NCBI GenBank assembly: GCA_046350815.1 | Contig: JAXLZO010000001.1 | Coordinates: 270,001 to 302,000 of the forward strand | Reading direction: 5' to 3' | Length of the DNA stretch: 32,000 bases | Origin: Candidatus Saccharimonadota bacterium | Lineage (GTDB): Bacteria > Patescibacteriota > Gracilibacteria > BD1-5 > UBA2023 | In this document: in pieces, positions 13,873 to 31,638 of the stretch | Position numbering within the stretch: the stretch's first letter is position 1 | Layout: each line of letters starts with the position of its first letter | Made by a program: the position numbers and the translations under genes | Notes under the pieces: generated by a model | What the model saw: only the letters and a program-made list of their open reading frames with translations | What the model was told of the DNA's origin: nothing | Databases searched by the model: none

Positions 13873-14091
13873 ATGAAAAAAAATATTCATCCAAAAGTTC
13901 TTGAGCTCAAAGTTTCATGCTCATGTGGTAACACTTTTACTACATCATCAACTATCGCAAGTGGTGAGCTCAAAGTAGAAACCTGCAGTAAATGTCATCC
14001 GTTCTATACTGGAGAACAGAAACTCCTCAAAACTTCAGCACTCGATAAATTCTACTCTCGCCAAGCAAAAGCTGAATCACTCAAAAAATAA
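13873..14091 (+). CDS. rpmE: ribosomal protein L31
   Basis: MKKNIHPK start, CSCG...[10 protein letters not shown] zinc-ribbon motifs, 72 aa. Confidence 0.93.
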
Positions 14092-14118
14092 AAACTCCAT
14101 ATGGAGTTTTTATTTTTT
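14091..14118. terminator. bidirectional intrinsic terminator (rpmE / TrbC-like gene)
   Basis: aaaactcc-atat-ggagtttt palindrome followed by tatttttt. Confidence 0.8.
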
Positions 14119-14128
14119 GTACCTCACA

Positions 14129-15100
14129 TTAAGAAAGTATCACCCCATTGAGAATCAATTGAAGCAAAAGATAACTTCCCATAAGGAGGATGCAACCGAT
14201 AACAATATACATAAGGATGGCCTTTGCTTTCTTCACACCTTCTTCTTGTCCACTACTGACCGCGAGAAGATAACCAGCATAAATAATCAAGAGGACGATG
14301 GCAATTCAAAGAAAGCTGCTCACATATTCAAGGATTTTAACAAGAGTTCCGCTTAATTCACTCAATCTTCCAAGATTTAATTTAATCTCACTACCCGATA
14401 CATCCGGATTTGTCACATCTCCATAGAATACTCGGACCAATACCTTTGGTATTTGTAAAAGTAAAAATCCAATAATAGCTGCTGTGACCATTGATTTTGC
14501 TTGTTTGATTTTCTCATCATTCCCAAGTGCTGTTGTAAGTTTGAACGCAGCCCATGTGCCCATAAAGAGAAACGTAATCTGTCAAAATGTAAGTAAAAAG
14601 TTTGTCAAAGGCAAGAGGATGCCACGATTGATATCAAGAGCGAGACTTCCATTTACCGCGTTTGCATTGGTAAAAAACATCACAAGACTATAAGCAGTCT
14701 GCATAAGAAATATACCAAGACCAACACTCACAATTCCTGACTTGAGACGTTTAACTTCTTCTTCCGTCGATCCAGCACCAAGTAACTTGATGACCATAAA
14801 GAGGAGTACTACGGAAGCAAGAATGATAATGACATTTTTTACGCTCTTTACAATATTCCATCCGGCTTGTCGAGCTCAAGCAAGATTGGTCACCTCGCTA
14901 TCATAGACCAGTTGCCCTGACCCAATACCAAGAATTTTTTTGGTTTCTAAATTAGGATCTGAACCTCGAAGTACCCCTCCAACTCATGAATCTTTTGTAT
15001 CCACATTAAAATCACTGTAATTCGTAGTTACGGCAAATACAGATGTGCCAAATCCAAAAAAAGTAAGAAGAGTGAAAATGGTAAGAAGAATTTTTTTCAT
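14129..15100 (-). CDS. polytopic membrane protein made of three TrbC/VirB2-pilin-like hairpin repeats
   Basis: 323 aa, one frame across 14582-14797 and 14306-14563 plus TGA read-through. Signal peptide MKKILLTIFTLLTFFGFGTSVFA. Three units of TM-G-x-[ED]E-x2-K-x-[AL]K-x-TM: LLGAGSTEEEVKRLKSGIVSVGLGIF, LGNDEKIKQAKSMVTAAIIGFLLL, SSGQEEGVKKAKAILMYIVIGCILL. Confidence 0.68.
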
Positions 15101-15108
15101 ATACAAAA

Positions 15109-18100
15109 CTAAGATGATGTATTTGTTTGTCCAAGTCCAAGACGTGCCTCGATTTCCATATCAACATATTCTTTCTTGCGTCCGTAAGTTTTACGAGAAT
15201 ATTCACGTATGATTTTTGCTACCTCATCGTTGCGATAAGTACTATCCCAAAGGGTCTTAAGATCAAATGGACGGCTCGATGCATTGTCGATATTGAGCTT
15301 ACAGTACGTCGTAAAGTTGGCGATACCAATAATGTCTTGTTGTGAGAGTACTGGGGCATACTCCTTCTCAAGGTACTCTGCATCATCCGCACCCACCTTG
15401 AACGACATAATCGTACCAGCATTCCCGAATACTGCATCCTTGATAGATGGTTTACCACCCTTTCCATTCTTATCTCATGATCCTCCAATCTGAGCAATAA
15501 ACTGATGTGCCATAATAAGAGCGAGACGATATTTACGAGCTTCTGAGAGAATCTCACCAAATGTATCTGTTGCAAAGTTTTGAAACTCATCAACATAAAG
15601 AAAGAAATCCTTACGTTCGCTCTCAGGAATATTCGCACGGCTCATAGCAGCCATATTGATCTTCGAAACCATGATAAGACCAAGAAGCTGGGCATTAAGG
15701 TCACCAATCGTACCTTTTGAAAGATTTACCATGAGAACCTTTTGGTCATCCATAACACGACGAAAGTTGAACGCTGATTTCGTCTGACCAATGATATTAC
15801 GAATGATGGTATTAGTAATGAATGGACCAAATTTCGCTGAAAAATATGGAATCATTTCTTGCTTCTCACGATCACCAGTTGAAGCATATTCATGTTCCCA
15901 AAAGGCTTTTACAACAGGATTCTTTACCTTTGAAACCTTATACTTCATAAAGGCATCATCCACAAAGAGACGTGGCACATCGATGAGTGTTCCGCCCTCT
16001 TCATCATCCTCCATAAGCGTGAGGGCACCATTGCGGAAATAGTGTTGAATACGAGGACCGAATACCTCATCGCCAAATATCTTAATGAATATTGCTGTGG
16101 CATCGAGTGCTGCACGATCTTTTTCCATCGCTCTCAAGGTAGAGTCTTCACTGATGACCTCAAGGATATTCATGCCCATAGGTCGCTCCCAATCACCAGG
16201 ATCGAAGATAATCATATCTTTTGCGCGAGATTTCGGAGTATATGCGATAACATCTTCTACAAGATCACCATGTGGATCAATAACGCAGAGACCATCTCCA
16301 CACCAGAGATCCTGGCGCGCCATATATCCTACAAATACTGATTTACCTCAACCTGACTTCCCAATAATATAATGATGACGACCTCGATCTTTTTTGCTAA
16401 AGTAAATCGGCGTTTTTTGATTGCGGTATTCATTCCAACCCATAAGAGCTGCATCACGGTAGAGAGGGAATCCACCAAGAGTTCGATGCACATCTTGTGC
16501 AATAGGATTTTTTCCAGGATCTATCGGCTTACCAGTGTTTTCACCCTCTGATACAACTGGAACCACTTCACCTGTAATGAGTTGTAATGATCGATCAGCT
16601 GCTCGTACGAGATTCTTATTCTTATCTACAAGCAGGATAGAACCATCTTCCGTATAAATATTTCCTTTTTTATCACGTTTGTAATCACTCATGATAAGTG
16701 GATCCTTTGGTGTTCTGAGGTTTGGAGGTGGTGCAATCATCTTGTACGAAAGCCACTTGATAATTGGTGATAGGTTATACTTGATATCAGGGAAATGATA
16801 CATAGTTGAGAGTTCATCCGTCGAATACACACTCGTTGTCTGAATGAGTGAAAGAAGACGACATTGAAAAGCAAAATATCGAACTGGGACGAATACGACT
16901 TTGAAAAGATCTTCAAACTGATGATTATCAAGAGAATTGTTGTATTCATCACTAAAACTCGATGTTACTGCAACGAGACTCTGAAGTCCAACATCCGCGG
17001 ATTCTGGAGTGTCGGATGCAACCAGAAATCGTATACTCGCTCGGAAAGCAAGTTGGCTCGCAGCTTCACCTACACGTTTTTGAGCTTCTGTCTCGGCTTG
17101 GTTGAATATCTTGTATGAATCACCACTCGAAGCACCAGGAGCATTCGATCCGCTGGTATCATTTTGCACAAAAAGATCAACAAACCATGATATTGGCTTC
17201 AGAAAGACACTCACCATATGAAAAAAGAAATTTCCAGAGTACCAACTCGTATAGGTACCTTTTGCAATGAGTCCAGCTGCTTTTTTTGCCTGTTTATTCC
17301 ACCCTTTTCATACTGGTTTCATAGTGAGTTGCATAACGGCAATGTCGGTTTTTTTGAGTGATCCAAATGAATTGGTAAGACTTGAGAGTGGATCATCCTC
17401 AAAAACTTTATATGGCTTGATAGGGTAAACATTATCCTTGGATTTAAAGATCGACGACACACGGAGAGTATATCACTGTGGCTTGGTCTCTGGGTAGTCC
17501 TCATTCTTAATGATAGCAACTTCGGCGTCAGGATAGAGTGCTGTAATTTGCTGAGAAACCACTTTTACATCCTCTGCATACGTTACGACAAAAAAGTACA
17601 CTTCGCCGTGATCGTAGACAAGTTCCAGTGAAATTTTGGTACGATTGAGGATCCAATTGCGCATCGTGTCCCAGAATTGAATATTCCCGAGCTTATGAAT
17701 AGAATTATAAAACACCGTCATAGAAGATATTTTTTCCTTGAAATCCTTGCGTGTTTCGCGTTCTTTATCTAGTTTTGAATCCGCTCTCGGGAGCATAACA
17801 CGTATGTATACCAAATTTTTCGCATGAAATACCTCATACATCAAGCGAATAATATGAAGCATTAAAATGCTGACAACGATAATAGCAAGAAGTGAGATGA
17901 TAAACTGAAATATTTTTGAGAAAATATTCGTATCATCCGTTTGTGTCTGTTGTGCACACGCTTTTGAATTACCTGAATTACAGAGGGCTTTCGTTTCAAC
18001 GGTGGATGGTTTTCCTGCTGCTGGTGTTGCACGATTCGCATTATCGATCAGTGCGGCGGAAGCATTCGGAATATGAACCGTCACCGTCAGAATACAGAGC

Positions 18101-18171
18101 GAAGAAAGCACAAAAACTATCAATCACAACAAAGATAGAAGAGGGCGATTTGATCGAGAAAATGGGAACAT
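15109..18171 (-). CDS. membrane-anchored FtsK/HerA-superfamily ATPase, TraG/TraD/VirD4-like (paralog A, 1020 aa)
   Basis: Four track fragments share one frame through 5 TGA codons. Signal/TM N-terminus, second TM FQFIISLLAIIVVSILMLHII. Walker A GKSG-G-GKS (16339-16362), VIDPHGD, Walker B FFLYVDEFQNF, ARKYRLALIMAHQFIAQI. Stop is 8 nt before the TrbC-like gene. Confidence 0.8.
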
Positions 18172-18267
18172 AGTTGGTATATACCCCTCAAGAGTAACAC
18201 ACATTCTCTCAATCGTCCAAATACTCATCTTTGCAAGTCAAAAAAATTGAGTATTATAACGAAAAAC

Positions 18268-19797
18268 GTGATTATACTTCTTCATTCCGTGTGCCTCTCT
18301 GGGCTCGAAGCACACTTGGTAACTCTCGAAATCGACGTATCAAATGGCATGCCGGCTTTTAATGTTGTCTGACTCACTGATACAGCCATTCAAGAAAGCA
18401 AAGAACGAGTACGAGCAGCTATCAAGAATAGCGAGTATAAATTCCCACAAACTCGCATCACTGTGAATCTTGCACCAGCGGATCTTCGGAAAAAATGACC
18501 GCTCTATGATCTTCCAATTGCACTTGGAATTATTTCATGAGAATGTTGATTCGATGAGGCACTTTTAAAAGAATCACTCTTTGTTGGAGAATGCAGCCTC
18601 GACGGAAGTATTCGATGAGTTCATGGAATCCTGCCTGCAGCTCTTTTTGCACGATCGATCGGAAAAAAATACCTCTTTGTTCCGGAAGAAAATGCAAAAG
18701 AGGCATCCATGGTTCCTGATATATCTGTGATTGCCATATCAAATCTGAAACAAGCAGTATCCTATCTTACAAAAGAGAAAGCATTGGAATTTGTACTCCC
18801 AGTAAATATTTTTGAGATTATCAAGAAAGATAAAGAGAAAATGGATCGATACGATCTCTCACACATCATCGGACAGGATCATGCAAAACGTGCCCTCACC
18901 ATAGCTGCGGCCGGTGGACACAATATTTTACTCGAATGACCCCCTGGATCTGGCAAAACACTCCTTGCAAAATCATTTGAAACACTCCTTCCAGATCTCA
19001 ATTTTGATGAAATGATTGAAGTATCTAAGATCTATTCAGTCGCCGGAAAATTAGAAAAAGGATCATCCCTCGTGACAACTCGGCCGATGCGAACCATTCA
19101 CCACTCAGCGAGCACCGTATCAGTGATCGGTGGTGGCCGAGATTCTCGTCCGGGAGAAATATCCCTCGCTCACAAATGAGTGCTTTTCCTGGATGAATTC
19201 CTCGAATTTGACTCCAATCTCCTCGAAACTCTCAGGCAACCACTCGAAGATGGAGAAATCACCATCAATCGTATCAATGCGAGCTACACCTATCCAGCAA
19301 AATTTGTACTCATAGGAGCGATGAATCCTTGTCCATGTGGGTATCTCTGAGACCGAAGCAAACAATGTGTCTGTAGTCCAACAACCATTGAAAGATATCG
19401 TAAAAAACTCTCCTGACCTATTATGGATCGTATAGATCTCATGATTCGAGTGCCACGTGTCCTCGAGAGTGACCTACAAAGCAAGAGCGAGTGAAGAAAG
19501 ACATCTGAAGAATATCGTCGAGAAATCGACAAAGCACGAGAACGACAACTCAAACGATTTAGCGGTACAAAAAAGACATTCAACAGCGAAATGGAGAACA
19601 AAGATCTTGAAACAATACTCAATATCCACCCAGATGCCGAGGCATTCCTCCTATCGGCTGTGACTCGACTTGATCTCTCGACACGTGTCTATTATCGACT
19701 GAAGAAACTCTCTCGAACCATAGCTGATCTCGCAGATTCAGATCAGATACTCCTCCCTCACGTGGCTGAAGCACTCTCCTACCGAGTATCCAACTAA
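18268..19797 (+). CDS. comM: Mg-chelatase-like AAA+ protein ComM/YifB
   Basis: [65 protein letters not shown]; each -G- is TGA. Start is GTG at 18268, or TTG at 18247. Confidence 0.92.
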
Positions 19798-19806
19798 ACT
19801 CAGAAT

Positions 19807-20913
19807 ATGTACAAATTCTCCCACCGCTCTGGCATGACGCTCATCGAAATTATGCTCGCTATCACCGTGCTCTCATCCATCATGATTGTCACGCTCGAGG
19901 CTATCAGCGGAACGCTCGCCTTCCGCAAACAAGCCACTGATGAACTCGATCTCTCAACCCAGAGTTATCTCGCTCTCGAAGTACTCACCCGAACGATCAA
20001 AGATGGATGATCGATCGACTACGAAGAATATTGGAATCGATCACGAGTGGGAACTGGGGTAGAATTTTGAGTCTATAGTGGCGCAACAGGATTTGGGAAT
20101 TATGGATACAATGCGGGGGCTATTAATAATACGAACACGAACTTTTGATCTGGAAAATACGTATGTGCTTATCAAAGCGGATCAGTAACTAATGCTTGTG
20201 ATAGTAATGAAAATTCATTCAATGGAGAAGCATGAGGAGCAACAGATACCTCAACGAAACCTCAACGCTTTGGTCAGTATGCTGCAAATTTTTACACATA
20301 CAAAACTGATGCAGATGGTGTCAATGGTATTATAGGTGACTATGATGATGAAGATCCAGGACTAGGTCCAGTAGCCATTCCTGACAATGGAAAACCAAAA
20401 GAGCTCTATCTCATCAAACGCACTAGCTCTGGAGTCGAGCGACTGATTATACGAAATTTTAAAATAAACGATTGATGAGTGTGTAATGATGCGACATGAG
20501 TAAATTGTCGATGACAGCTTGAGATTCTCAAGCTCAAAGGAAGTGATGAAGGACTAGATCATGATAGTACCAATTCTGATAAATCAGGGGAATACGATGG
20601 TATTATCGACACATGGCGCTGTCATCCAGATTATAGCTGTGCTTGACCTAATAATCTCCCACTTGGAACAGGATCAGAATTTGTACCACTCCTCCCACCT
20701 ACCATCAGCGTTCTGAACTGGCAGCTCGATGTAGCGCCGATCAAGGATGGTAACCGTAGCTGGCGAGAGCGTCAGTATTCACAGGCTCAGAGTGTGAGAC
20801 TCACCGTAACGCTCTGATGGAGCAATGTCCACAAGCAGACACTTAAAAATGGTAAAGAAAAAACTATCACTCTTTCAACACTCATTAATCTCGACAATGT
20901 ATGAAAACAATAA
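19807..20913 (+). CDS. type IV pilus minor pilin / pseudopilin-like protein (prepilin-type N-terminal methylation motif)
   Basis: HRSG-MTLIEIMLAITVLSSIMIV matches G/(F,M)TLIE plus a hydrophobic helix. 368 aa with 11 in-frame TGA and no TAA/TAG until 20911-20913. Confidence 0.75.
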
Positions 20914-21827
20914 CATCTTTTGCTCGGGACAAACGCTGAGTTGGTCTCATCTTCGCACTCGTATCAGTCGTGCTCCTCTCGATGATCATGACGGTATTCT
21001 ATGAGATCGTCATTCCACGTGCTCGTAATGTCAAAGGGATCGAGCAGAGTAATGTAGCAGCCTACAACGCTGAGAGTGGTATCGAGGCAAGTTTGAATAG
21101 CTTCAGTGGAAGCAATCCCGTTGCAGACGTAGACACCGGTTCAATTGGTATTTACAGTGTAAGTGGATCGATTAAACGTGAATGCACTAGTGGGCCATGC
21201 GTATTTCCTGAACCATGAAAATGAAATAGTCCAACTGACTCAAATTATAATATCATTCGACCTGGATCACCAATTCAAATACCAATTACAAATGGAACTA
21301 TAACTTCAGGTTTTAGTGTAAAGTTTCATATGCCTGAAGCTTTTAGTGGTGGCGTATTAAGTAGAAAATTAAAAGATGATGCAAAGCCCTACTTTATATG
21401 GACTTTTACAACAAATCCAGCAGCTCCATGAACAGCAAAGAGTATTACATCTCAGAGTGGTGCTCTTCTGCAATTTAATAATCTAACATCAATATTTGCA
21501 GTTGAAGGGAATAATTGAGAGAAGTGAATTAAAAATGATGGGACAAAAGATAATTGATTATGAGGATTTATCTCATCAAATGCATCAGATTGCACTTGAT
21601 ACAAATGCACACTCAAAATCTCACTCATTCGAGATTTAGAAACTGATGATGGAAAAAGAATTCCTTATCTTGAATATCAAATTACTACAACTGGGAATCT
21701 CACCATTCCTCTCCAATACGCAACGCTTACCTCTACCGGAACTCAAGGACCATTCTCAAAGACGGTCACTCGAGAGGTAGAACGATTCACCACCAACGAG
21801 GCCTTTGATTTTACGGTATTGCAATAA
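20901..21827 (+). CDS. PilX-like minor pilin candidate
   Basis: N-terminus FARDKR-G-VGLIFALVSVVLLSMIM is PilX_N-like. 308 aa with 9 in-frame TGA. Overlaps the preceding pilin gene by 13 nt. TAA at 21825-21827. Confidence 0.55.
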
Positions 21828-23042: not shown

Positions 23043-23077
23043 AAAAAACAGCTCCTTGTCTAACGACCGGGAGCTGT
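23043..23077 (-). terminator. intrinsic terminator of the paralog-B operon
   Basis: The minus strand reads acagctcc-(14 nt loop containing the TAG stop)-ggagctgt followed by TTTTTT. Confidence 0.65.
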
Positions 23078-24034
23078 TACATTATGAGCTTTGTATATAA
23101 ATTGGCTAAACGGAGCCAGAGCATCATCCAGACGCTGACGCATGACAATATAACTATCTCGAATAAGCAAGAGATAAATATGAAGCTCATAAGCACTTTC
23201 AAAACTGAGATAGGAATCAAATGTTGAAGATATGGTTTGAGTAGCGAGGCTTGGAGCTGCAGCAATGCGGCTTTCAAGTATTTGTCGAGTACTCACGAGA
23301 TCATTCGTATTGCGAGCACCATCAAGGATAGCTCACTCTTGTTCTGCTACATTCTTGACGTAACGCGTATAAGCAAGATAACGACAAGTGAGATAGGATG
23401 ATGTATTGATAAGTCGTTCCGACATTACCTTTCGTTTGAGAGGCTCATTATTTGACTGTGTGCCAAGTGCCCGACATTTATAAAGAGTCGCATCTTCATT
23501 ATTCTTTTGTTTGAGGGGTGGGAGATAATCTTTGAGAGATGATTCTTGAAGAAATCGAAATCCGCCGTTTGACTTTGCAGCTTCGATATCATTGTATATT
23601 TGAGCTTTTGAATTCACAAGAGCGCAGGCAAAGAGATTGTTCAATACAGCATTATAGAGTTCGGTATTTGCTTCAAAGTAGTCGAGCATCTTCGGTGAGC
23701 TTACTGTCGGGGTATCTTCGCCAAGATCCCCACCCATATTTGGAACATTTCCTCCAAAATCACCAATCATTTTTCACACCGATTGAAGTGCTGCCTCATC
23801 GCCCATGGGAGCAAATTTGAGATCTTTTATCTTGAGAAAAGTATCAGTATCACCAGCTGACCAGGGGTTTGGGGCGCCACAAGTTGAGAGTCAGCTTGAG
23901 AGAGTTGAGTTATCACCCAAATATGTATCGTATATCGATTGATTCGTTGCACTCACCTGAGCAAAAACCTCGGAAGAAAATCCAAGGCACACAAAACCAA
24001 ATATCAAGAACGAACTAAAAATCTTTTGTAGCAT
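23060..24034 (-). CDS. secreted protein of unknown function (324 aa)
   Basis: Signal peptide MLQKIFSSFLIFGFVCLGFSSEVFA. Fragments 23333-23770 and 23060-23296 are joined by TGA. Its ATG overlaps the TAA of the upstream ATPase gene (TAATG). Confidence 0.6.
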
Positions 24035-26442
24035 TACCCGCCTATTCTATACGAAAGTTCTTTTTCGACAAATACTCGATCGCGTCCATATTTGAGACGA
24101 GAAAGTTCCGTGTAGATATGAGCATATTTTTTATCTCATTCTTCAAGATATGGATTGAGCGGAATAATCGAAAATGAAGGTGTTGGTTGACTATCAACAA
24201 GAGGTCGAATAACAGCTCGGAATTTATCCATATTCACGAGATCAAAGTCCGAGAAATTCGGCTTCATAATCTCTGATATTGCCTCTCCATCATCACTACC
24301 AATACGGTATGACATAACCGTACCAACGTTACCAAAAATAGCATCTTTAAGATTGAGGTTTGATTTTGTAAGTGAGTCTGATTTTTGAAGCTGTGCAATA
24401 TACTGATGTGCCACATTGAGAGAGAGTCGATACTTACGAGCTTCTGAGAGGATAGATTCGATTGATTCTGTAATATAGTTCTGAAACTCATCAATATAGA
24501 GAAAGAAATCACGTCGATCTTCCTTTGCTATAGACTGACGACGCATAGCCGCAATTTGCATCTTGGACACGAGTATGAGACCCAGCAGATTGGAATTAAA
24601 ATCACCGAGCAAACCTTTTGAAAGATTGATCAAGAGTATCTTTCCTGATTGCATACTATCATAAACATCGAATGAGCTGGTTGTTTGACCGATAATATTA
24701 CGCATCATTCGATTCGTAATGAATCCACCAAATTTTGCTTGAAAATATGGGATAATCTCGGCCTTTTCGCGGTCTCATTGTTTGGAATACACACCCTGCC
24801 ACCATTGTTTTACTGCTGGATCTTTGACAGTCTGACGCCGCGCCATCTGAAAATTATCATCCGTAAAGAGGCGTACTATGTCTGTGATTGCACCGCCTTC
24901 TGGATAGTCCATAAGCGTAATCGCACCATTTCGAAAATAATCCTGAATGCGAGGCCCAAATATCTCAGCACCAAAGAGTCGAATCATGATAGAAAGTGCA
25001 TCTTGTACCACCATTTGTTTTTCATCCTCAGTGCTGTATTCCAGCATATTCAGTCCCATCGGACGCTCAAGATCTGCGGGATTAAAATAAATCACATCTT
25101 CTGCGCGCTCTCTTGGGATAAATGGCAAGAGATCATGTGCAAAATCTCCATGCGGATCCATCACAGCGAGACCTTCTCCTGCACGGATATCCTGACGAGC
25201 CATGGAAGTTAATACTGTCGTTTTACCAGTACCAGTCTGCCCAATCACATAAAAATGACGAAAACGATCTTCTCTCTTGAGTCGAATTTCCCGACGAGTT
25301 CCACGATATTCGTTATGACCAATGAGAATTCCTTCTTTTGGCATATCTGGTGGTGCTCCAACAATCTTGAATCGTTGCCATTTGATCTCATGAACACGGT
25401 TATATTTGGAATGAGGGAAGTGATAGAGCGAAGCTATCTCCTCAAGACTCAAAATCGAGGGTGAGAGGAGGCTGCTCTGAGGAAAACGAAGAACAAACTT
25501 CTGAAAAAATCCTACCGATTCAATATATTTTGATGCCTTAAATCGATTGTACCCCGGAGATGCAAACTGACCAAAAGCTGCTTTGAGATGTTCAATCTCC
25601 GTCAGAACAAGCGAACGGTCATCACCCGTAACAAGGAGGCGTATAGCTACAGAATAACCAGATTTTTTGGCTTTTTCAGCAATATGTTCAGCGTCAGCGT
25701 TCTTATGATCGTCTTGGGGGGATTCTTTGTCTTGAGATGCATTTTCAGGCGACCAAAAAACAGAGAGAAGATGAGAGAGAAATCATGGATGATGCTTTCA
25801 TTTTTTCGAGAGTTTTTTCTCATAGCGTTGAGCGTTGTCTTGCCAAGTGTCTGGATAGGACTTCAGTACAATCTGAACGATCGCTCGTTCATGCTCTGCG
25901 AGTTTTGCGAGACTCGAGAGAATCGGATTCATAGGATCAGATTCTAGTTCCTTGTAGGATTTGATAGGGATAAAATAACTCTTATCAAGCTTAATATTCA
26001 CACCAACCGCGTGCGCATTAGATGAAAAAAGTTGTGGTTCTTCGATCTCCTCGAGGATAATATCACTATAGATAGCAGCAAGTTGTTTCTCTACGAATAC
26101 ACGATATTTCTTGTGCACAGCAATAACAAACGTGATCTCTCCTTCGCGTGCATGATATTCGAATGAAAGAAAATCACCCCGAAAAAATTGAGAGACAATA
26201 TTGCTTTTCTCAAACTGCTTAAAACTGGTGAGAAATTGCTCCATCAGACTAACGTGTTCTCGAAAATCTTTGATTGTGTCTTTGCGTTCATCAGCATCAC
26301 TATCCTTGCGGGTCATGAGCACTCGGATAAAAACAAGTTGTCTCGAATACCAAAGCTTCAGAAAAAATCTCAGAACAAAGAGAAAAATAAGAAATCAGAG
26401 AACGGCAAATGCAATGAGCGGACTCATTAAAGTAATATCCAT
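24034..26442 (-). CDS. membrane-anchored TraG/TraD/VirD4-like ATPase (paralog B, 802 aa)
   Basis: Fragments 25798-26322, 24775-25452 and 24136-24708 share one frame via TGA. N-terminal TM, Walker A GQTGTGKT, VMDPHGD, FFLYIDEFQNY, ARKYRLSLNVAHQYIAQL. Colinear with paralog A from the LV(Y/F)IRV segment to the C-terminus. Confidence 0.8.
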
Positions 26443-26923: not shown

Positions 26924-26967
26924 GACATTCTCCTATATTTGTTGTTCTTGAAAAGAGGGATTGGAGG

Positions 26968-26994
26968 ATTATAGACTAAAAAATTAAAAGTCAA
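26968..26994 (-). promoter_or_regulatory. near-consensus sigma-70-type promoter TTGACT-15-TATAAT
   Basis: The minus strand reads ttgact-15 nt-tataat, about 45 nt upstream of the ATG at 26923. Confidence 0.5.
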
Positions 26995-27026
26995 ATATCC
27001 ATATATAAAGCCTAGACTCAGGATGC

Positions 27027-27054
27027 TTGTTATTTTTTGATGGTTTCATATACT
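27027..27054 (+). promoter_or_regulatory. promoter P+1: TTGTTA-16-TATACT (module 1 small-ORF transcript)
   Basis: The -10 hexamer lies inside the 44-nt repeat. The predicted +1 (about 27061) is the base of the CTCCCA/TGGGAG hairpin. Confidence 0.5.
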
Positions 27055-27085
27055 CTCGTCGCTCCCATTCCGTTGGGAGTGGGAG
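27042..27085 (+). repeat. 44-nt exact repeat, copy 1 (-10 box plus 5-prime hairpin)
   Basis: ggtttcatatactctcgtcgctcccattccgttgggagtgggag. Identical to 27360-27403. Confidence 0.95.
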
Positions 27086-27111
27086 GTTTATTTTGGTAAA
27101 CTTCTTACTGT

Positions 27112-27222
27112 ATGAAATTCTTTCGAGAATTTTGGATCAAGATGTGGTGTCTCAGTATTGAGATACAGCTTGATAAGAAGCGAAGAATGAAGGTCTATGA
27201 CGATAGTTCTGAGCAAAAATAA
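27112..27222 (+). CDS. small ORF 1 (36 aa) of the type-I-TA-like module; coding status unproven
   Basis: MKFFREFWIKMWCLSIEIQLDKKRRMKVYDDSSEQK. The ATG is embedded in direct repeat DRb, and TAA abuts terminator T1. Confidence 0.35.
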   Translation: MKFFREFWIKMWCLSIEIQLDKKRRMKVYDDSSEQK

Positions 27223-27297
27223 AAGACCCGCGTCAACGGGTCTTTTATTTTGGGAGGCTTATTTCCCTTCTTACAGTATGAGGCCTCCGAAGAGGTC
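27214..27297 (-). ncRNA. predicted antisense sRNA 1 (~84 nt)
   Basis: Own promoter (27304-27331). The 5-prime end folds as GACCUC-UUCG-GAGGCC. The body is complementary to the ORF1 leader and start codon. Ends at T1. Confidence 0.5.
27221..27251. terminator. bidirectional intrinsic terminator T1
   Basis: aaaagacccg-cgtcaa-cgggtctttt with T-runs on both strands. Confidence 0.8.
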
Positions 27298-27303
27298 AAT
27301 ACA

Positions 27304-27331
27304 AGTATAGCAGATGACTCTAGAAATGCAA
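27304..27331 (-). promoter_or_regulatory. promoter P-1: TTGCAT-16-TATACT (sRNA 1)
   Basis: Minus-strand hexamers at 27331-27326 and 27309-27304. Hexamers and spacing are identical in the second copy (27613-27640). Confidence 0.55.
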
Positions 27332-27344
27332 ATATTTTGGATTC

Positions 27345-27372
27345 TTGCTTTTGGAATTGGGTTTCATATACT
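27345..27372 (+). promoter_or_regulatory. promoter P+2: TTGCTT-16-TATACT (module 2 small-ORF transcript)
   Basis: Same geometry as P+1. The -10 box lies inside repeat copy 2. Confidence 0.5.
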
Positions 27373-27403
27373 CTCGTCGCTCCCATTCCGTTGGGAGTGG
27401 GAG
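27360..27403 (+). repeat. 44-nt exact repeat, copy 2
   Basis: Identical to 27042-27085, with a 318-nt period. Confidence 0.95.
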
Positions 27404-27428
27404 ATTTTTATCTCTTTACTGCGATTTT

Positions 27429-27533
27429 ATGAGGAATTTCCTCAAATATCTCACAGCTCTTCTGGGCTATGAGATTCATCGAGTGGGTGGAAGAGCTCGA
27501 AAGATGCTGATCCGCAAGCTCCGATGAAAATAA
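27429..27533 (+). CDS. small ORF 2 (34 aa) of the type-I-TA-like module; coding status unproven
   Basis: MRNFLKYLTALLGYEIHRVGGRARKMLIRKLR-G-K (one TGA). The ATG is 2 nt after DRb. TAA abuts T2. Confidence 0.35.
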
Positions 27534-27606
27534 TAAAACCCCCGGCAAGGGGTTTTATTATTTGGGAGATTTCTCTTCCTTACTGCGATTGGTCTCTTGC
27601 GAGATC
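27526..27606 (-). ncRNA. predicted antisense sRNA 2 (~81 nt)
   Basis: Promoter at 27613-27640. The 5-prime end folds as GAUCUC-GCAA-GAGACC. The body is complementary to the ORF2 leader. Ends at T2. Confidence 0.5.
27535..27563. terminator. bidirectional intrinsic terminator T2
   Basis: aaaacccc-cggcaa-ggggtttt with flanking T-runs on both strands. Confidence 0.8.
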
Positions 27607-27612
27607 AGAGTA

Positions 27613-27640
27613 AGTATAGCAGATGGCACAGGAAATGCAA
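27613..27640 (-). promoter_or_regulatory. promoter P-2: TTGCAT-16-TATACT (sRNA 2)
   Basis: Minus-strand hexamers at 27640-27635 and 27618-27613. Confidence 0.55.
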
Positions 27641-27653
27641 ATATTTTGAAATC

Positions 27654-27747
27654 TCCGACTCGCGATGACTATATCGCTCCCTGGACTGTTGAAACTTGTC
27701 CGACTCGCGATGACTATATCGCTCCCTGGACTGTTGAAACTTGTCCG
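27654..27747 (+). repeat. perfect 45-bp tandem duplication (2.1 copies)
   Basis: tccgactcgcgatgactatatcgctccctggactgttgaaacttg at 27654-27698 and 27699-27743, then tccg. Confidence 0.95.
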
Positions 27748-27796
27748 CCTATCAGAGCACACTTCTTGATGAATGTAAGATATATAAAAAGAAGAA

Positions 27797-27822
27797 GATC
27801 CTGAATCAAAGTTCAGGATGAC
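27797..27822 (-). repeat. GTCAT-hairpin-ATC dispersed repeat, copy 4 (inverted orientation)
   Basis: The reverse complement reads gtcatCCTGAActttgaTTCAGGatc. Lies 77 nt downstream of the S-layer-like gene stop. Confidence 0.75.
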
Positions 27823-27898
27823 GAATTGAATAAGAAAAACAGACAACAAAAAACTCCCACCCGTGAGGGAAGGAGTAATTTTGTATCTAACGATCAGA

Positions 27899-30800
27899 CT
27901 AGTAAGTACCAGCAGAGCGAGAGAATGAAGTAGAAGCTGGAAGACCAGTTCCGTTGTAAGACTTGATAGAAGTGATCGCTGAAGTAGCGTAGTCACCTTG
28001 CTCTTTGTCGAAGTAAGCAACATCATTAACTGAAGTGTTAATAGTGTTGTTATCACCAGTAGCAGTACCATCGAAGTCAGCAAGAATCGTAACAGTTTGA
28101 CCTGCGAGGATTTCAAGCTTTGTTGATTGTCCATTAACAGGAATAGCAAGACCATTTGTAGCACTTACAGCACCTGAAGAGATCATCTCAGATGTAGAAG
28201 CTGTTTCACCCTTATAGAGAGTTACAGTTCCAGTTGAAGAAGAAACGAAGAGATCTTTTACCATTACTGCGTCAGTACCATTGTTAGTAATAGTGAATTT
28301 CACCTTACCTGCACCAGCATCAGAGATAGAGATGCCAGCAGCAGCAACAACGAGCTTACCAGCAGTAATAAGATCAGCCTTAGTAAGAGTACCAGTTGAA
28401 GCAACACGTCAGCATCAGTAAGAACTATCAATTGAACCTTCAAGACGAGATCGCATTGATCTGCAAAACCATTTACATTTCCACCTTGAGCATCACGTCA
28501 CATCAACACCATTAGCATACACCAGCATTCAAGCTTAACATCTTAAGACCAGAATCACCAACACCAAGTTTTGCAATAGAAGCCTTAACAGAAAGCTCTG
28601 CATCAGTATTGCGAGCAACAATATATGAAGAATCAACGAAGTTGTTAAACTTAACGTTAATAGCAACTCCATTTGTTGTAAATAACTGTACCATAAGCAA
28701 CAACCTTACCAGCAGCATCTACGAGAGTAGGAGACTTGAATAAGACGAGCAAGCTGATTTATCAGCTTGCAGAACCACTCAGTGAACCACCTTAATTGAG
28801 CAAGAGAAAGATAGAGCTCCTTAACATAGAGAGATCATCATTTGTTGCACGAACACGAATTTACCAAGTTCAATAGAACATTTTGAGCATTACAAGAAGA
28901 TATCAGCAGCATCATCAGTAGAAACAGCAATATCAAGCTGCAGCATTTGATAGTGAGACCGTAGCCAGCAATAGTTGCATTTGAAACAACAACATTGTTA
29001 CCATTTACATCAGATACATTTGATCAGTCTTGCGAGTCAACAGTTGTAATCTTTCACCATTTGCAAATCGAGGAAGAGCAGTCTTGAGCTCGATAGTTGC
29101 AGCCTTGAAGACTTTTCTACCTTGAATGTAGAGAATGAGCAACAGTTCCAGTATCAGCATCTACCTACAGTAGAAGCTTGGCAACAGAAGCAACCTACGA
29201 GAGTACCATTGATGTAGAGAGCAACCGTGAAGATCCTTAAGTTTATCTGCAGTACCAGAAGCAGTTCAACTGAAGTTGCAGCAAATCGACTCAGAAGTAA
29301 CAGTAATGTCAGAAACATCATTGTTATTGAGAGTATACTTGAGGAAGAGAGATTCTTCGCACCACCTACTACTTTGAAGCAACTGGAGATTGTTTGAAAT
29401 AGTAACACCTGCACCCTTAACAGTTACCTTAATAGGAGAGAGATCCACTTGCATCAGTTCAACCTTACGATCTGAAGAAGTATAACGAATATCGTTACCT
29501 AATGCTGCATTACCAGTTGCAAGAGATACAGTCAGCAAGTTGGAATGAACCAGAAGCAGCATCAGCACGAACATCAGCAGTAACAGTGAAGTCACTTGTA
29601 CCAGCATCAACAACAAATGATTGCGTTGATAGTATAACTCAAGAGGTGACACCAGCTGTAAATTGAGCTTGAACCATCAACACTAATTGATTGACCAGCA
29701 ATATTTACACGAATACTTGTCTGCATCAAGTTTTGCAAGAGCACCTGTAGTAAGAAGGTTCAAATGAGAGTAAGATCACGAAGCTTAACACCTTCCTTAG
29801 CAGTGATAGTACCCTTAGCAAGAATTACATCATTCTGACCAGCAGCAACATCAACATTAGCAGTATTTCCAACGTAGTGAGAGAGAAAGAGAACCAGCCT
29901 CTACTTAATGAATAGAAGATTTTCTTGCATCAACGTTGTAGTTGAAGCTTGTAGCAGCACGGTATCCAGTAGCAACTTCCTCAGCAATTACATGTTCTCA
30001 TTCGATTATCAAAATGAGAATTGAAGAGACATCATTTGTCTTTATCAATACCAGTAATATCACCCTTAAGTTGGTAATTTCGAGATGAGTTTGTGTAAGC
30101 AATAGTGTCATTCAACACGAATGTAAATATTACGACCATCAACAACAACATCAGAAGAAACCTTAGCACCAGTTACCTTAGAGTAGATTGCAAGATTTGC
30201 AAGGTACTTAACATCGAGGTTTTTTTCGTTGTAGAAGAGTAACATTCTTAAGAAGAACATCACGGCTACCAGAAGTTTTACACGGAATTCACCGAGAATA
30301 ACATCCTTTTCACCAGCCTTAACATCTTTTGAGTAGGTGCACTTACAGATTCAAAATCTACCTTGAGTAGTAGTATAGTTTGTAGTAACAAGAGTATTTG
30401 ATACAAGAGGGAATGCTGCAGTAAGAGTAGAAGCAGTAGAACAATATCCTTAGCAGCTACGATTGCAAAATTGTGTTGTGCACCAGATACACCAGGAGAT
30501 CGAAGCTTAACAATAAGATCGAGGGTTCCAGTTGTACCAGCCATAATCTTCCAAGCTGGAGTGAATGAAAGAGTAACAGTTTCATCTGAGTTTACAGAAG
30601 CTTGTGTAGTAACACGCTTACCGTTGTACTCGAACCAAACTGAATCAATTCCATCACGTTGACCAAGACCACCACGCTTCATCTTGATAGACTTGAGAGT
30701 CACATCAGAAGATGCAGCAGCAAATGAGTATTTACCAGCCTTGATTGTACCAACCTTTGGAACATATTGCATTCCCATAGCGTCGTTGCTGATAGTAAGA

Positions 30801-31483
30801 CCACCAGCAGTAACAACACCAGTTGATGTAGTTCCAGTAGAAGTAGTAGGAGGAGTTGTAGTTCCAGTTCCGTTTGTAGGAGGAGTTGTAGGTTCTACAG
30901 AATCCATAACAACAGACGATACCTTAAATGCTTCACCACGAGTAGCGTTTGCATTAGGGCGGAAATACTCACCATCCTTGATCGCACCGATCTCAACACC
31001 AGCGTTGATATAACCAGCAAGATCACCGATTGATGCAATATCCTTGAAGCTTGATGCCTTGTCAGAAGACTCAACACCGTTTGCAGCAAGAAGCATCTTA
31101 ACCATTTCAGCACGAGTTACCTTGTCAGTAGGACGGAATTTGTCAGCGTTAGCATTGACAAAACCTTCTGCTGCTGCAGTTTCGATAGCTGAACAAAGAT
31201 CACCGAGAGAAGGACCAACATCAGAGAATACATCTCCAACACAGTCGTACATCTCTACACCACTGAGCTTGACTGCAATTTTTGCAACCTCAGCACGAGT
31301 GATATTGTCACCAAGACGGTAGCCAGCTTCAGTCTGAGAGTTGATAACTCCAGCCTTCGCAAGCATATCCGCATATGTGAGGAACTCGCTTGCAGCACTA
31401 ACAGATGCAGTAGCACCCATTGCAGATGCAGCAATAGCAAGAACACTCACTGTAGAAGTAACTTTCTTGAAAAGATTACTCAT
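27899..31483 (-). pseudogene. SLH-domain S-layer-like surface protein gene with a frameshift-dense central region
   Basis: Signal peptide MSNLFKKVTSTVSVLAIAASAMGATASVSA. Three SLH-type units (..FRPTDKVTRAEMVKMLL.., ..YFRPNANATRGEAFKV..). Thr/Pro linker, then Ig-like repeat sequence. The frame is intact from 31483 to about 30441 and from about 28330 to 27899 (same phase at both ends). In between, sensible peptide keeps switching among all three frames. Confidence 0.6.
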
Positions 31484-31638
31484 AAAATGAGAACAGAAAA
31501 AAAAATAAAACACCTTTATCGAGAAGCTAGGCTTGTTGAAAAGCAGGCCCAAGAAGATAAAGTGCCGATTTGAACTTCGGCGAAGTTAAAGCTTTAACCT
31601 CTGTTTTGTTTTGTTACAAACAAAGCAAGAGGATACAA

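Follow-up and report, generated by a model that had tools for sequence, protein, structure and literature searches.

We analysed a 32,000-nucleotide (32-kb) stretch of a Candidatus Saccharimonadota bacterium (GTDB lineage Gracilibacteria; BD1-5; UBA2023; contig JAXLZO010000001.1, positions 270,001 to 302,000), hereafter the window. It carries two adjacent genes, which we call A1 and P1. A1 encodes a membrane-anchored ATPase related to the coupling proteins of type IV secretion systems (T4SS); P1 encodes a secreted protein in which three hairpins of the T4SS pilin type are fused in one chain. A1–P1 is a chromosomal operon of two T4SS-type parts and is specific to Gracilibacteria that use genetic code 25. 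An earlier reading of the sequence alone (hereafter the sequence-only reading) had described this module by itself and overlooked a paralogous one, A2–P2, located 6 kb away. All coordinates refer to the 32-kb window; A1, P1, A2 and P2 all lie on the minus strand and were translated with table 25. The features of the A1–P1 pair, with the basis of each placement, are listed below (aa, amino acids; HMM, hidden Markov model).

15109..18171, minus strand: A1, 1020 aa, five in-frame TGA codons (table-25 translation)
17824..18150, minus strand: A1 N-terminal membrane region (hydropathy scan)
16690..17823, minus strand: A1 DUF8128 (PF26449) domain, aa ~117-494 (alignment with A2; precomputed Pfam annotation of homologs)
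16456..16689, minus strand: A1-type beta-rich insert, aa ~495-572, ~80 aa (gap in the A1/A2 BLASTP alignment)
15112..16455, minus strand: A1 ATPase domain with helical insertion (motifs, identity to A2, TrwB match)
16339-16362, minus strand: Walker A GKSGGGKS, aa 604 (motif position)
16264-16278, minus strand: DPHGD, aa 632 (motif position)
15574-15591, minus strand: Walker B DEFQNF, aa 861 (motif position)
15490-15510, minus strand: AHQFIAQ, aa 888 (motif position)
14129..15100, minus strand: P1, 323 aa, four in-frame TGA codons (table-25 translation)
15029..15100, minus strand: P1 signal peptide, aa 1-24, ending ...SVFA before V (hydropathy, sequence reading)
14666..14890, minus strand: P1 hairpin 1, aa 71-145, loop GAGSTEEEVKRLKSG (hairpin HMM)
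14420..14644, minus strand: P1 hairpin 2, aa 153-227, loop ALGNDEKIKQAKS (hairpin HMM)
14147..14365, minus strand: P1 hairpin 3, aa 246-318, loop SSGQEEGVKKAKA; PF18895 matches best here (hairpin HMM, Pfam)
14083..14111, minus strand: terminator-like AT-rich stem-loop (AAAAACTCCATATGGAGTTTTT) with a T-run (sequence reading)

The spacing of 8 nt between the two genes reported in the sequence-only reading was confirmed: the TAG stop codon of A1 (15109-15111) is followed by 8 nt (TTTTGTAT) and then by the ATG of P1 at 15100. The start of A1 is uncertain by 19 aa, as an alternative in-frame ATG lies at 18228. The stem-loop, 18 nt past the P1 stop codon and facing the convergent rpmE gene, is terminator-like and, together with its T-run, appears to close the operon. 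It escaped a consensus terminator scan on account of its AT-rich stem. We read A1 and P1 as an operon because of the 8-nt gap and this terminator-like hairpin downstream of P1.

UGA is decoded in this genome as Gly (code 25), neither as a stop nor as Trp. The summed length of open reading frames (ORFs) of at least 100 aa was 21,603 aa with table 25 versus 6,081 aa with table 11. Codon 608 of A1 (16348-16350, minus strand) is an in-frame TGA that specifies the fifth residue of the Walker A motif, where homologs carry Gly, providing clean internal proof of the code. At the TGA sites of P1, homologs have Gly, or Trp if the gene was called with code 4. The aligned UGA positions that we checked (the hairpin-2 site of P1 and the Walker A site of A1) are Gly in homologs, and UGA is therefore read as Gly. 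Misreading of UGA could in principle have fused three independent genes into one apparent triple hairpin; we rejected this, as UGA codons fall inside hairpin helices. Public gene calls for the code-25 genomes of P1 homologs (P0001, P0003) often use code 4, placing Trp at UGA, and code-11 calls fragment genes in code-25 genomes such as those of loci L001 and L002. Such calls fragment or mistranslate A1- and P1-type proteins, which matters for annotation; surveys of pilin arrays or T4SS parts may therefore miscount in Gracilibacteria and other code-25 lineages.

The A1 ATPase and the P1 triple hairpin

The N-terminus of A1 comprises a signal-peptide-like segment (aa 8-37), a Cys-containing outside loop of ~45 aa and a transmembrane (TM) helix (aa 81-116), and the orthologs in L007, L008 and L012 share this layout. 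Hydropathy thus bears out the signal/TM N-terminus described in the sequence-only reading, and the four catalytic motifs that it listed are all present and intact. Its "~550-aa domain with no motif" turned out to be something else, namely the named family DUF8128 (PF26449) followed by the A1-type insert. DUF8128 is predicted to be a cytoplasmic alpha/beta domain specific to the candidate phyla radiation (CPR). In A1 it is 25% identical to aa 9-374 of A2 by BLASTP, and PF26449 is annotated on essentially every A1 or A2 homolog listed. The insert is not found in A2; the model of an ortholog (P0006) has beta strands at residues 416-515. A profile of DUF8128 alone found no relative among PDB sequences or in a local Pfam copy, and our literature search found no published work on the domain.

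The nucleotide-binding domains (NBDs) of A1 and A2 are 47% identical. Both proteins match the Pfam family T4SS-DNA_transf (PF02534), with 41.1 bits for A1 and 36.9 bits for A2 against a cut-off of 20.1, and most A1 homologs carry the same annotation. The VirD4/TraG-like assignment made earlier therefore held, as matches to TrwB and Cagβ in Foldseek searches of the PDB also indicated. Matches of A1 to TrwB_AAD_bind and TraG-D_C were below the Pfam threshold. The NCBIfam models for TraD (32.6 bits, cut-off 366) and CD1115-type VirD4 (26.1 bits, cut-off 250) aligned to the P-loop region only, as did the CedD model NF053655 (36.1 bits for A2 and 12.5 bits for A1, cut-off 600). Among VirB4 sequence models, TIGR00929 gave 14.4 bits for A2 against a cut-off of 643, and there was no match to PF03135. 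No FtsK-specific feature was detected in A1.

For structural comparison we used a model of the ortholog P0006, which is 87% identical to A1, rather than of the window protein. Built from a 114-sequence alignment, it had a pLDDT (predicted local distance difference test) of 86.3 and a pTM (predicted TM-score) of 0.80. In the PDB search, its ATPase half matched TrwB (E 2.8e-12, ~425 columns, TM-score 0.58-0.63 on the target) and Cagβ (E 3e-11). The top matches were TrwK/VirB4 chains, aligned over ~970-1010 columns with E 1.5e-13 but with a TM-score of 0.25-0.31 and a root-mean-square deviation of ~15 Å. Because of these matches to TrwB, Cagβ and TrwK/VirB4, the C-terminal half of A1, as judged from the ortholog model, is a bona fide NBD of the superfamily of type IV coupling proteins (T4CPs) and VirB4.

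In P1, a hydropathy scan showed a signal-peptide-like N-terminus and six more hydrophobic segments. The Pfam family PF18895 (T4SS_pilin) matched in three separate stretches (E 3.7e-14; 53 bits, cut-off 26.6) and was found in seven of seven P1 orthologs (best E 5.3e-23). These matches, together with the hairpin HMM and the ortholog alignment, support the signal peptide and three tandem pilin hairpins claimed in the sequence-only reading. The TrbC/VirB2 family PF04956 did not match P1 but matched two of the seven orthologs, with E values down to 3.6e-8. The NCBIfam model NF045849, for the pilin-like protein Mbov_0395 of a Mycoplasma integrative and conjugative element (ICE), scored 38.5 bits on P1 in two stretches, against a cut-off of 40. 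No VirB6-, TrbL- or CedA-type model (e.g. PF04610) matched P1 or its orthologs, and none was matched among PDB sequences. With six predicted TM helices in 323 aa, encoded 8 nt from an ATPase gene, P1 has a VirB6/CedA-like layout, which is a resemblance only.

The three hairpins align in register with those of orthologs from six other genomes, and the fusion is therefore neither an assembly artefact nor a chance match. Orthologous hairpins are 37% identical, versus 21% between hairpins within one protein, from which it follows that the triplication is old and that every hairpin has been maintained individually. As a proxy for P1 we modelled P0001, which is 94% identical and was called with code 4, from a five-sequence alignment. 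The pLDDT was 47, and the secondary structure consisted of exactly three helix-loop-helix units. Searches of PDB sequences with profiles of a single hairpin and of the full triple returned only designed helical proteins and no VirB2, TraA, CedA1 or VirB6.

Poly-hairpin proteins and conservation of the gene pair

An exhaustive HMMER search with a P1-family profile retrieved 25,778 cluster representatives at E <=1e-3, 1,069 at 1e-10 and 69 at 1e-30. We counted hairpins in 153 proteins, comprising the top 149 new matches and four earlier homologs, with the following result.

2 hairpins per protein: 6 proteins
3 hairpins per protein: 118 proteins
4 hairpins per protein: 19 proteins
5-8 hairpins per protein: 10 proteins

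Members of this series of two to eight hairpins include L083 (8001-10463), L084 (4904-6655) and the representatives P0246-P0394, from public metagenomes; those that carry a label are entered as "hypothetical protein" (Gracilibacteria) or "uncultured bacterium (gcode 4)". The proteins with seven and eight hairpins are encoded on code-11 contigs, neither with an adjacent ATPase gene; the eight-hairpin gene adjoins single pilins and PKD-repeat surface proteins. Precomputed PF04956 annotation is weak for the seven-hairpin relative and faint for the eight-hairpin relative. As the series extends across databases, fusion is recurring rather than a one-off. The sequence-only reading had called a covalently triplicated pilin unusual. 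It is not unique, given at least 118 triple-hairpin representatives, but covalent concatenation of VirB2-like hairpins is, as far as our searches show, an undescribed theme: the literature that we searched contained no published description of a fused pilin or of its pairing with an ATPase. The CPR-wide ATPase family was already known; what appears to be new is the triple-hairpin protein, the series of two to eight hairpins and the link, within an operon, to one of the T4CP paralogs.

Nor is the ATPase peculiar to this locus: it is a nearly universal and strongly conserved CPR protein, which corrects the sequence-only reading. We found more than 400 A1 homologs at 60-87% identity and 3,700 A2 homologs. 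At least 597 loci of the DUF8128 ATPase family were confirmed in GTDB species genomes, at 44-70% identity and usually with two paralogs per genome. The family ranges over Gracilibacteria, Absconditabacterales, Peregrinibacteria and Peribacteria, Doudna-, Magasanik-, Uhr-, Moran- and Staskawiczbacteria and Saccharibacteria, and the split between A1 and A2 reaches code-11 Peregrinibacteria. ATPase identity is 60-87% across Gracilibacteria and 44-55% across CPR classes. P1 evolves much faster, its orthologs being 29-51% identical.

A triple-hairpin gene lies directly downstream of the ATPase gene in 7 out of 14 code-25 A1-type places (the window and 13 further loci). These seven are the window, L001, L002, L006, L007, L008 and L012, and their ATPases are only 59-82% identical. 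Four of them (L006, L007, L008 and L012) have a fuller module, consisting of the ATPase, two triple-hairpin proteins and a single hairpin, and L012 has three additional single-hairpin genes. In L064, a triple-hairpin gene abuts the A2–P2 pair. In three loci, a membrane protein of ~400 aa replaces the triple-hairpin gene (L003, 10869-12098; L004, 3331-4539; L005, 10936-12138). From its sequence it looks like a phosphatase of the PP2C/SpoIIE type, and the A1 orthologs of these loci are ~70% identical. Downstream of the ATPase in L011, L023 and L054, which are more distant, lie other genes.

Adding 503 hairpins taken from the representatives gave a broader hairpin HMM, which recovered the single pilins that Pfam annotates in the code-11 locus L083. 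With this model, none of the 66 code-11 ATPase loci (0/66) had a hairpin gene within 8 kb of the ATPase; a core role of the ATPase may therefore be independent of pilins. The A1–P1 pairing is thus lineage-specific, confined to a subset of code-25 Gracilibacteria. Conservation of the neighbourhood, which the sequence-only reading had proposed as a check, held in half of the code-25 A1-type places and failed in the code-11 loci. In the code-11 loci (L013-L082), we observed that the ATPase gene is flanked by conserved, uncharacterised small genes of ~180 aa (-1) and ~200 aa (+1), the latter with a 'VPANYASKSKLVEGD' motif. Genes identified from sequence motifs as dnaX and cysS also lie near the code-11 ATPase. 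This conserved neighbourhood might reveal the core function of the ATPase family.

The second module and the rest of the window

The A2–P2 module and the genes that separate it from A1–P1 are as follows.

24034..26442, minus strand: A2, paralogous ATPase, 802 aa, with one TM segment (hydrophobic aa 1-33), DUF8128 and a T4CP-type NBD
23060..24034, minus strand: P2, secreted protein of 324 aa, family unassigned, translationally coupled to A2
18247..19797, plus strand: ComM/YifB-like ATPase of the Mg-chelatase family, divergent from A1, start uncertain (synteny)
19807-20913 and 20901-21827, plus strand: two type IV prepilin-like genes (N_methyl, hydrophobic N-terminus)

The stop codon of A2 and the start codon of P2 overlap in TAATG. 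P2 had no Pfam or NCBIfam match, and its homologs follow A2-type genes in L002 and L064. Between the two modules lie ComM, the two prepilin-like genes and a pseudouridine synthase gene of the RluD type. We assigned ComM and RluD through the Pfam domains that occupy the corresponding syntenic positions of L001 and L002, those for ComM being ChlI, Mg_chelatase and Mg_chelatase_C. The first prepilin-like gene scored 19.3 bits with N_methyl, below the cut-off of 21.2; the second encodes a similar hydrophobic N-terminus and had no Pfam match. In L008 (5294-7747), genes that are PilB/PilC-like by sequence motifs only lie directly upstream of the A1-type ATPase. Together, the ComM and prepilin genes and the PilB/PilC-like genes of L008 hint at a recurring link of the A1–P1 module to type IV pili.

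The remaining genes form an ordinary chromosomal set: GrpE, RNase P protein, RuvX, UppS, FtsX, Fur, ZIP, RlmH, SSB, a sortase, a sigma-like regulator, tRNAs and an SLH surface protein, with GroEL and L31 recognised from sequence only. The G+C content is uniform along the window. An ORF-poor region (26950-27900) contains two copies of a ~310-nt unit (27042-27345 and 27360-27654), with a 48-nt block that is 98% identical, followed by a perfect 45-nt tandem duplication (27654-27743). We checked this repeat region (26.9-27.9 kb) for CRISPR or known RNA and obtained no Rfam match. A large SLH-domain, S-layer-like gene (27900-31585, minus strand) appears split over several frames, apparently through frameshifts, decay to a pseudogene or assembly errors; its homolog in L002 is called as one protein of 1,179 aa, which continues past the locus end.

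Function of the pair and comparison with known systems

Published surveys provide the setting for A1–P1. Patescibacteria have 5,713 VirD4-type T4CP homologs in 2,918 out of 3,035 genomes, only 148 of them near virB4 (Quinonero-Coronel et al. 2025, PMC12102498). Their VirB2-like genes (PF18895/PF04956) often form arrays of 2-11 separate genes, and relaxases are almost absent (PMC12102498). In S. epibionticum, the cultivated model strain, epibiotic growth requires the T4SS and its series of pilins (Wang et al. 2023, PMC10633639), and the patescibacterial T4SS has essential VirB2-like pilins and no relaxases (PMC10633639; PMC12102498). In Gracilibacteria, VirB6 is not detectable, VirB3/TrsD is unlinked from virB4 and T4SS parts are scattered (PMC12102498). 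PMC12102498 and PMC10633639 do not mention fused pilins, a T4CP–pilin operon or DUF8128.

The explanation that we tentatively prefer is that A1–P1 may be the inner-membrane ATPase and hairpin-bundle (channel or pilus base) unit of a dispersed, non-conjugative patescibacterial T4SS. The gene models, family membership, intact motifs and conserved, lineage-specific pairing are established by the data, and we infer the physical interaction, topology, substrate and direction of transport along the following lines. A1 is a membrane-anchored ATPase of the coupling-protein (VirD4/TrwB) lineage with a CPR-specific DUF8128 N-domain. P1 would be exported by Sec and span the membrane with six TM helices, its three VirB2-type hairpins being joined covalently, with the charged G-x-E-E-x-x-K-x-x-K loops facing the cytoplasm and the linkers facing outward. 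A1, presumed by analogy to be a hexamer, would dock beneath the hairpin bundle and use ATP either to drive a substrate through P1 or to supply a surface filament with hairpin subunits. VirB4, VirB3-like and TrsD-like parts would lie elsewhere in the genome, the usual arrangement in Gracilibacteria. The 8-nt spacing, together with the pairing in seven genomes with added pilin-like genes, argues for a functional link between A1 and P1. The sequence-only reading had left a choice between a pared-down device and a system with its remaining components elsewhere; as T4SS genes are scattered in Gracilibacteria, the latter is favoured. None of the three outcomes that it had named as counting against it was found: a place for the ATPase in an unrelated HerA/FtsK clade, a downstream protein lacking a VirB2-like fold or a pairing without conservation in relatives. 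Overall, its observation was confirmed and its interpretation only partly supported.

Several results weigh against the T4SS explanation. Our scans of the 32-kb window found no VirB4, VirB6, VirB8-10 or relaxase, as the sequence-only reading had stated, nor any further T4SS part, and none of these was evident in the gene lists of five related loci. Half of the code-25 A1-type loci have no pilin partner, and the 66 code-11 ATPase loci sit among housekeeping genes. T4CP homologs are also more widespread in CPR bacteria than VirB4 (2,918 versus 2,417 of 3,035 genomes; PMC12102498), and the t4cp homolog of S. epibionticum is not essential (PMC12102498). The three-dimensional fold of P1 is unconfirmed, as Foldseek searches with the P0001 model gave only 14-3-3 proteins and designed helical repeats, with E >=0.1.

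These points bring into consideration a core CPR housekeeping translocase, such as an FtsK-like pump for DNA or protein, with P1 an incidental co-transcribed envelope gene. We regard this as doubtful. The ATPase is indeed very strongly conserved (60-87% within Gracilibacteria, 44-55% among CPR classes) and near-universal in CPR, including at least 500 genomes without detected VirB4 (PMC12102498); its code-11 neighbours include dnaX and cysS, P1 changes much faster than its partner, and L003-L005 have a different downstream gene in place of the pilin. An incidental P1, however, is hard to reconcile with the 8-nt spacing and with a pairing that recurs in seven genomes with added pilin-like genes, or with L064, where the other paralog has a hairpin gene immediately next to it. 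Nor does A1 have any FtsK-specific feature, and both Pfam and Foldseek rank T4SS ATPases first. A remnant of an integrated conjugative element is hardly credible. T4CP-like and pilin-like genes are typical of such elements, and there were weak NCBIfam matches to ICE and conjugation families, but no relaxase, integrase, VirB4 or element boundary was found and the ATPase is conserved vertically across a phylum-level radiation. The uniform G+C content, the syntenic housekeeping context and the lack of a relaxase or integrase effectively refute this candidate.

The archaeal Ced/Ted systems suggest another arrangement, a self-sufficient minimal translocon in which A1 and A2 would act like CedB and CedD and P1 as a VirB6/CedA-like channel. 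Type IV pili would make the cell contact, and the substrate could be host DNA, with ComM acting downstream. This is a live alternative, though we consider it unlikely; its parts correspond to those of Ced. There, the paralogous ATPases CedB and CedD each combine a TM anchor and an ATPase domain with an N-domain similar to part of the VirB4 N-terminal domain (PMC11868833), and the system also has a channel with 5-7 TM helices, pilins of the hairpin type and type IV pili (PMC11868833; PMC9905601). Homology to the pilin hairpin has been described for the N-termini of CedA/VirB6 channels (Beltran et al. 2023, PMC9905601), and a channel built from hairpins is therefore plausible; the lack of detectable VirB6 in Gracilibacteria and the fuller modules, with an ATPase, two six-TM proteins and a single-hairpin pilin, fit such a channel. 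The top Foldseek matches align VirB4 with A1 from end to end. In the window, L001 and L002, ComM and A1 are divergently oriented; in the window the prepilin-like genes adjoin, and L008 has its PilB/PilC-like genes. This adjacency of ComM and PilB/PilC is not general, however, and the CedD model reaches only the P-loop, at 36 bits against 600. Similarity between DUF8128 and the VirB4 N-domain is unproven, given the low TM-scores (0.25-0.31), the deviation of ~15 Å and the lack of a profile match. In S. epibionticum, moreover, DNA is taken up through ComEC, and loss of natural transformation does not affect viability (PMC12857230). We think it quite unlikely that poly-hairpin P1-type proteins are the missing VirB6/CedA-like channel of Gracilibacteria, made of concatenated VirB2 hairpins and forming, with A1/A2 as the bacterial counterpart of CedB/CedD, a minimal translocon independent of VirB4. 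If true, P1-type proteins would be living intermediates of the pilin-to-channel transition inferred by Beltran et al. 2023, and this translocon would serve ultrasmall, host-dependent bacteria with code 25 to carry DNA or proteins across the envelope.

Patescibacteria rely on other cells for growth, and a "coupling protein" is near-universal among CPR bacteria. The A1–P1 operon offers a concrete, testable candidate for the membrane core of a T4SS machine in Gracilibacteria, and the series of two to eight hairpins is direct material on how T4SS pilins and channels evolved from one another.

Compared with known coupling proteins (VirD4/TrwB/TraD/Cagβ; PF02534, PF10412, PF12696), A1 has the same N-terminal membrane anchor and the same RecA-type NBD with Walker A and B motifs and a helical insertion, and TrwB is its best domain-level structural match. 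It differs in having ~380 aa of DUF8128 between anchor and NBD, so that the NBD does not directly follow the anchor. Its gene sits on the chromosome, is inherited vertically, shows very strong conservation and occurs in duplicate (A1/A2); it has no relaxase or adjacent VirB4 in the window, and its product scores far below the TraD and VirD4 equivalog cut-offs. Canonical VirB2/TrbC/TraA pilins (PF04956) and NF045849 resemble P1 in that the signal peptide precedes a hydrophobic helix-loop-helix whose loop is charged. They are single hairpins of ~70-130 aa, whereas P1 has three per chain, each with its own conserved identity.

The patescibacterial T4SS described previously (PMC10633639, PMC12102498) resembles A1–P1 in its T4CP homologs and PF18895 pilins, in being non-conjugative and chromosomal, and in encoding multiple divergent pilin hairpins side by side. 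Its pilins, however, are separate genes clustered with virB4, and its T4CP is usually unlinked; in A1–P1, three hairpins form one polypeptide whose partner is a T4CP paralog, not VirB4. With the archaeal Ced/Ted systems (CedA/CedE, CedA1, CedB/CedD, Ups pili), the shared features are two paralogous proteins with TM, N-domain and ATPase parts, a 5-7 TM protein related to the pilin hairpin, hairpin pilins and an association with type IV pili or recombination. By contrast, there is no significant sequence relationship, the NBDs of A1 and A2 are nearer to T4CP than to HerA/VirB4, and the host of A1–P1 is bacterial.

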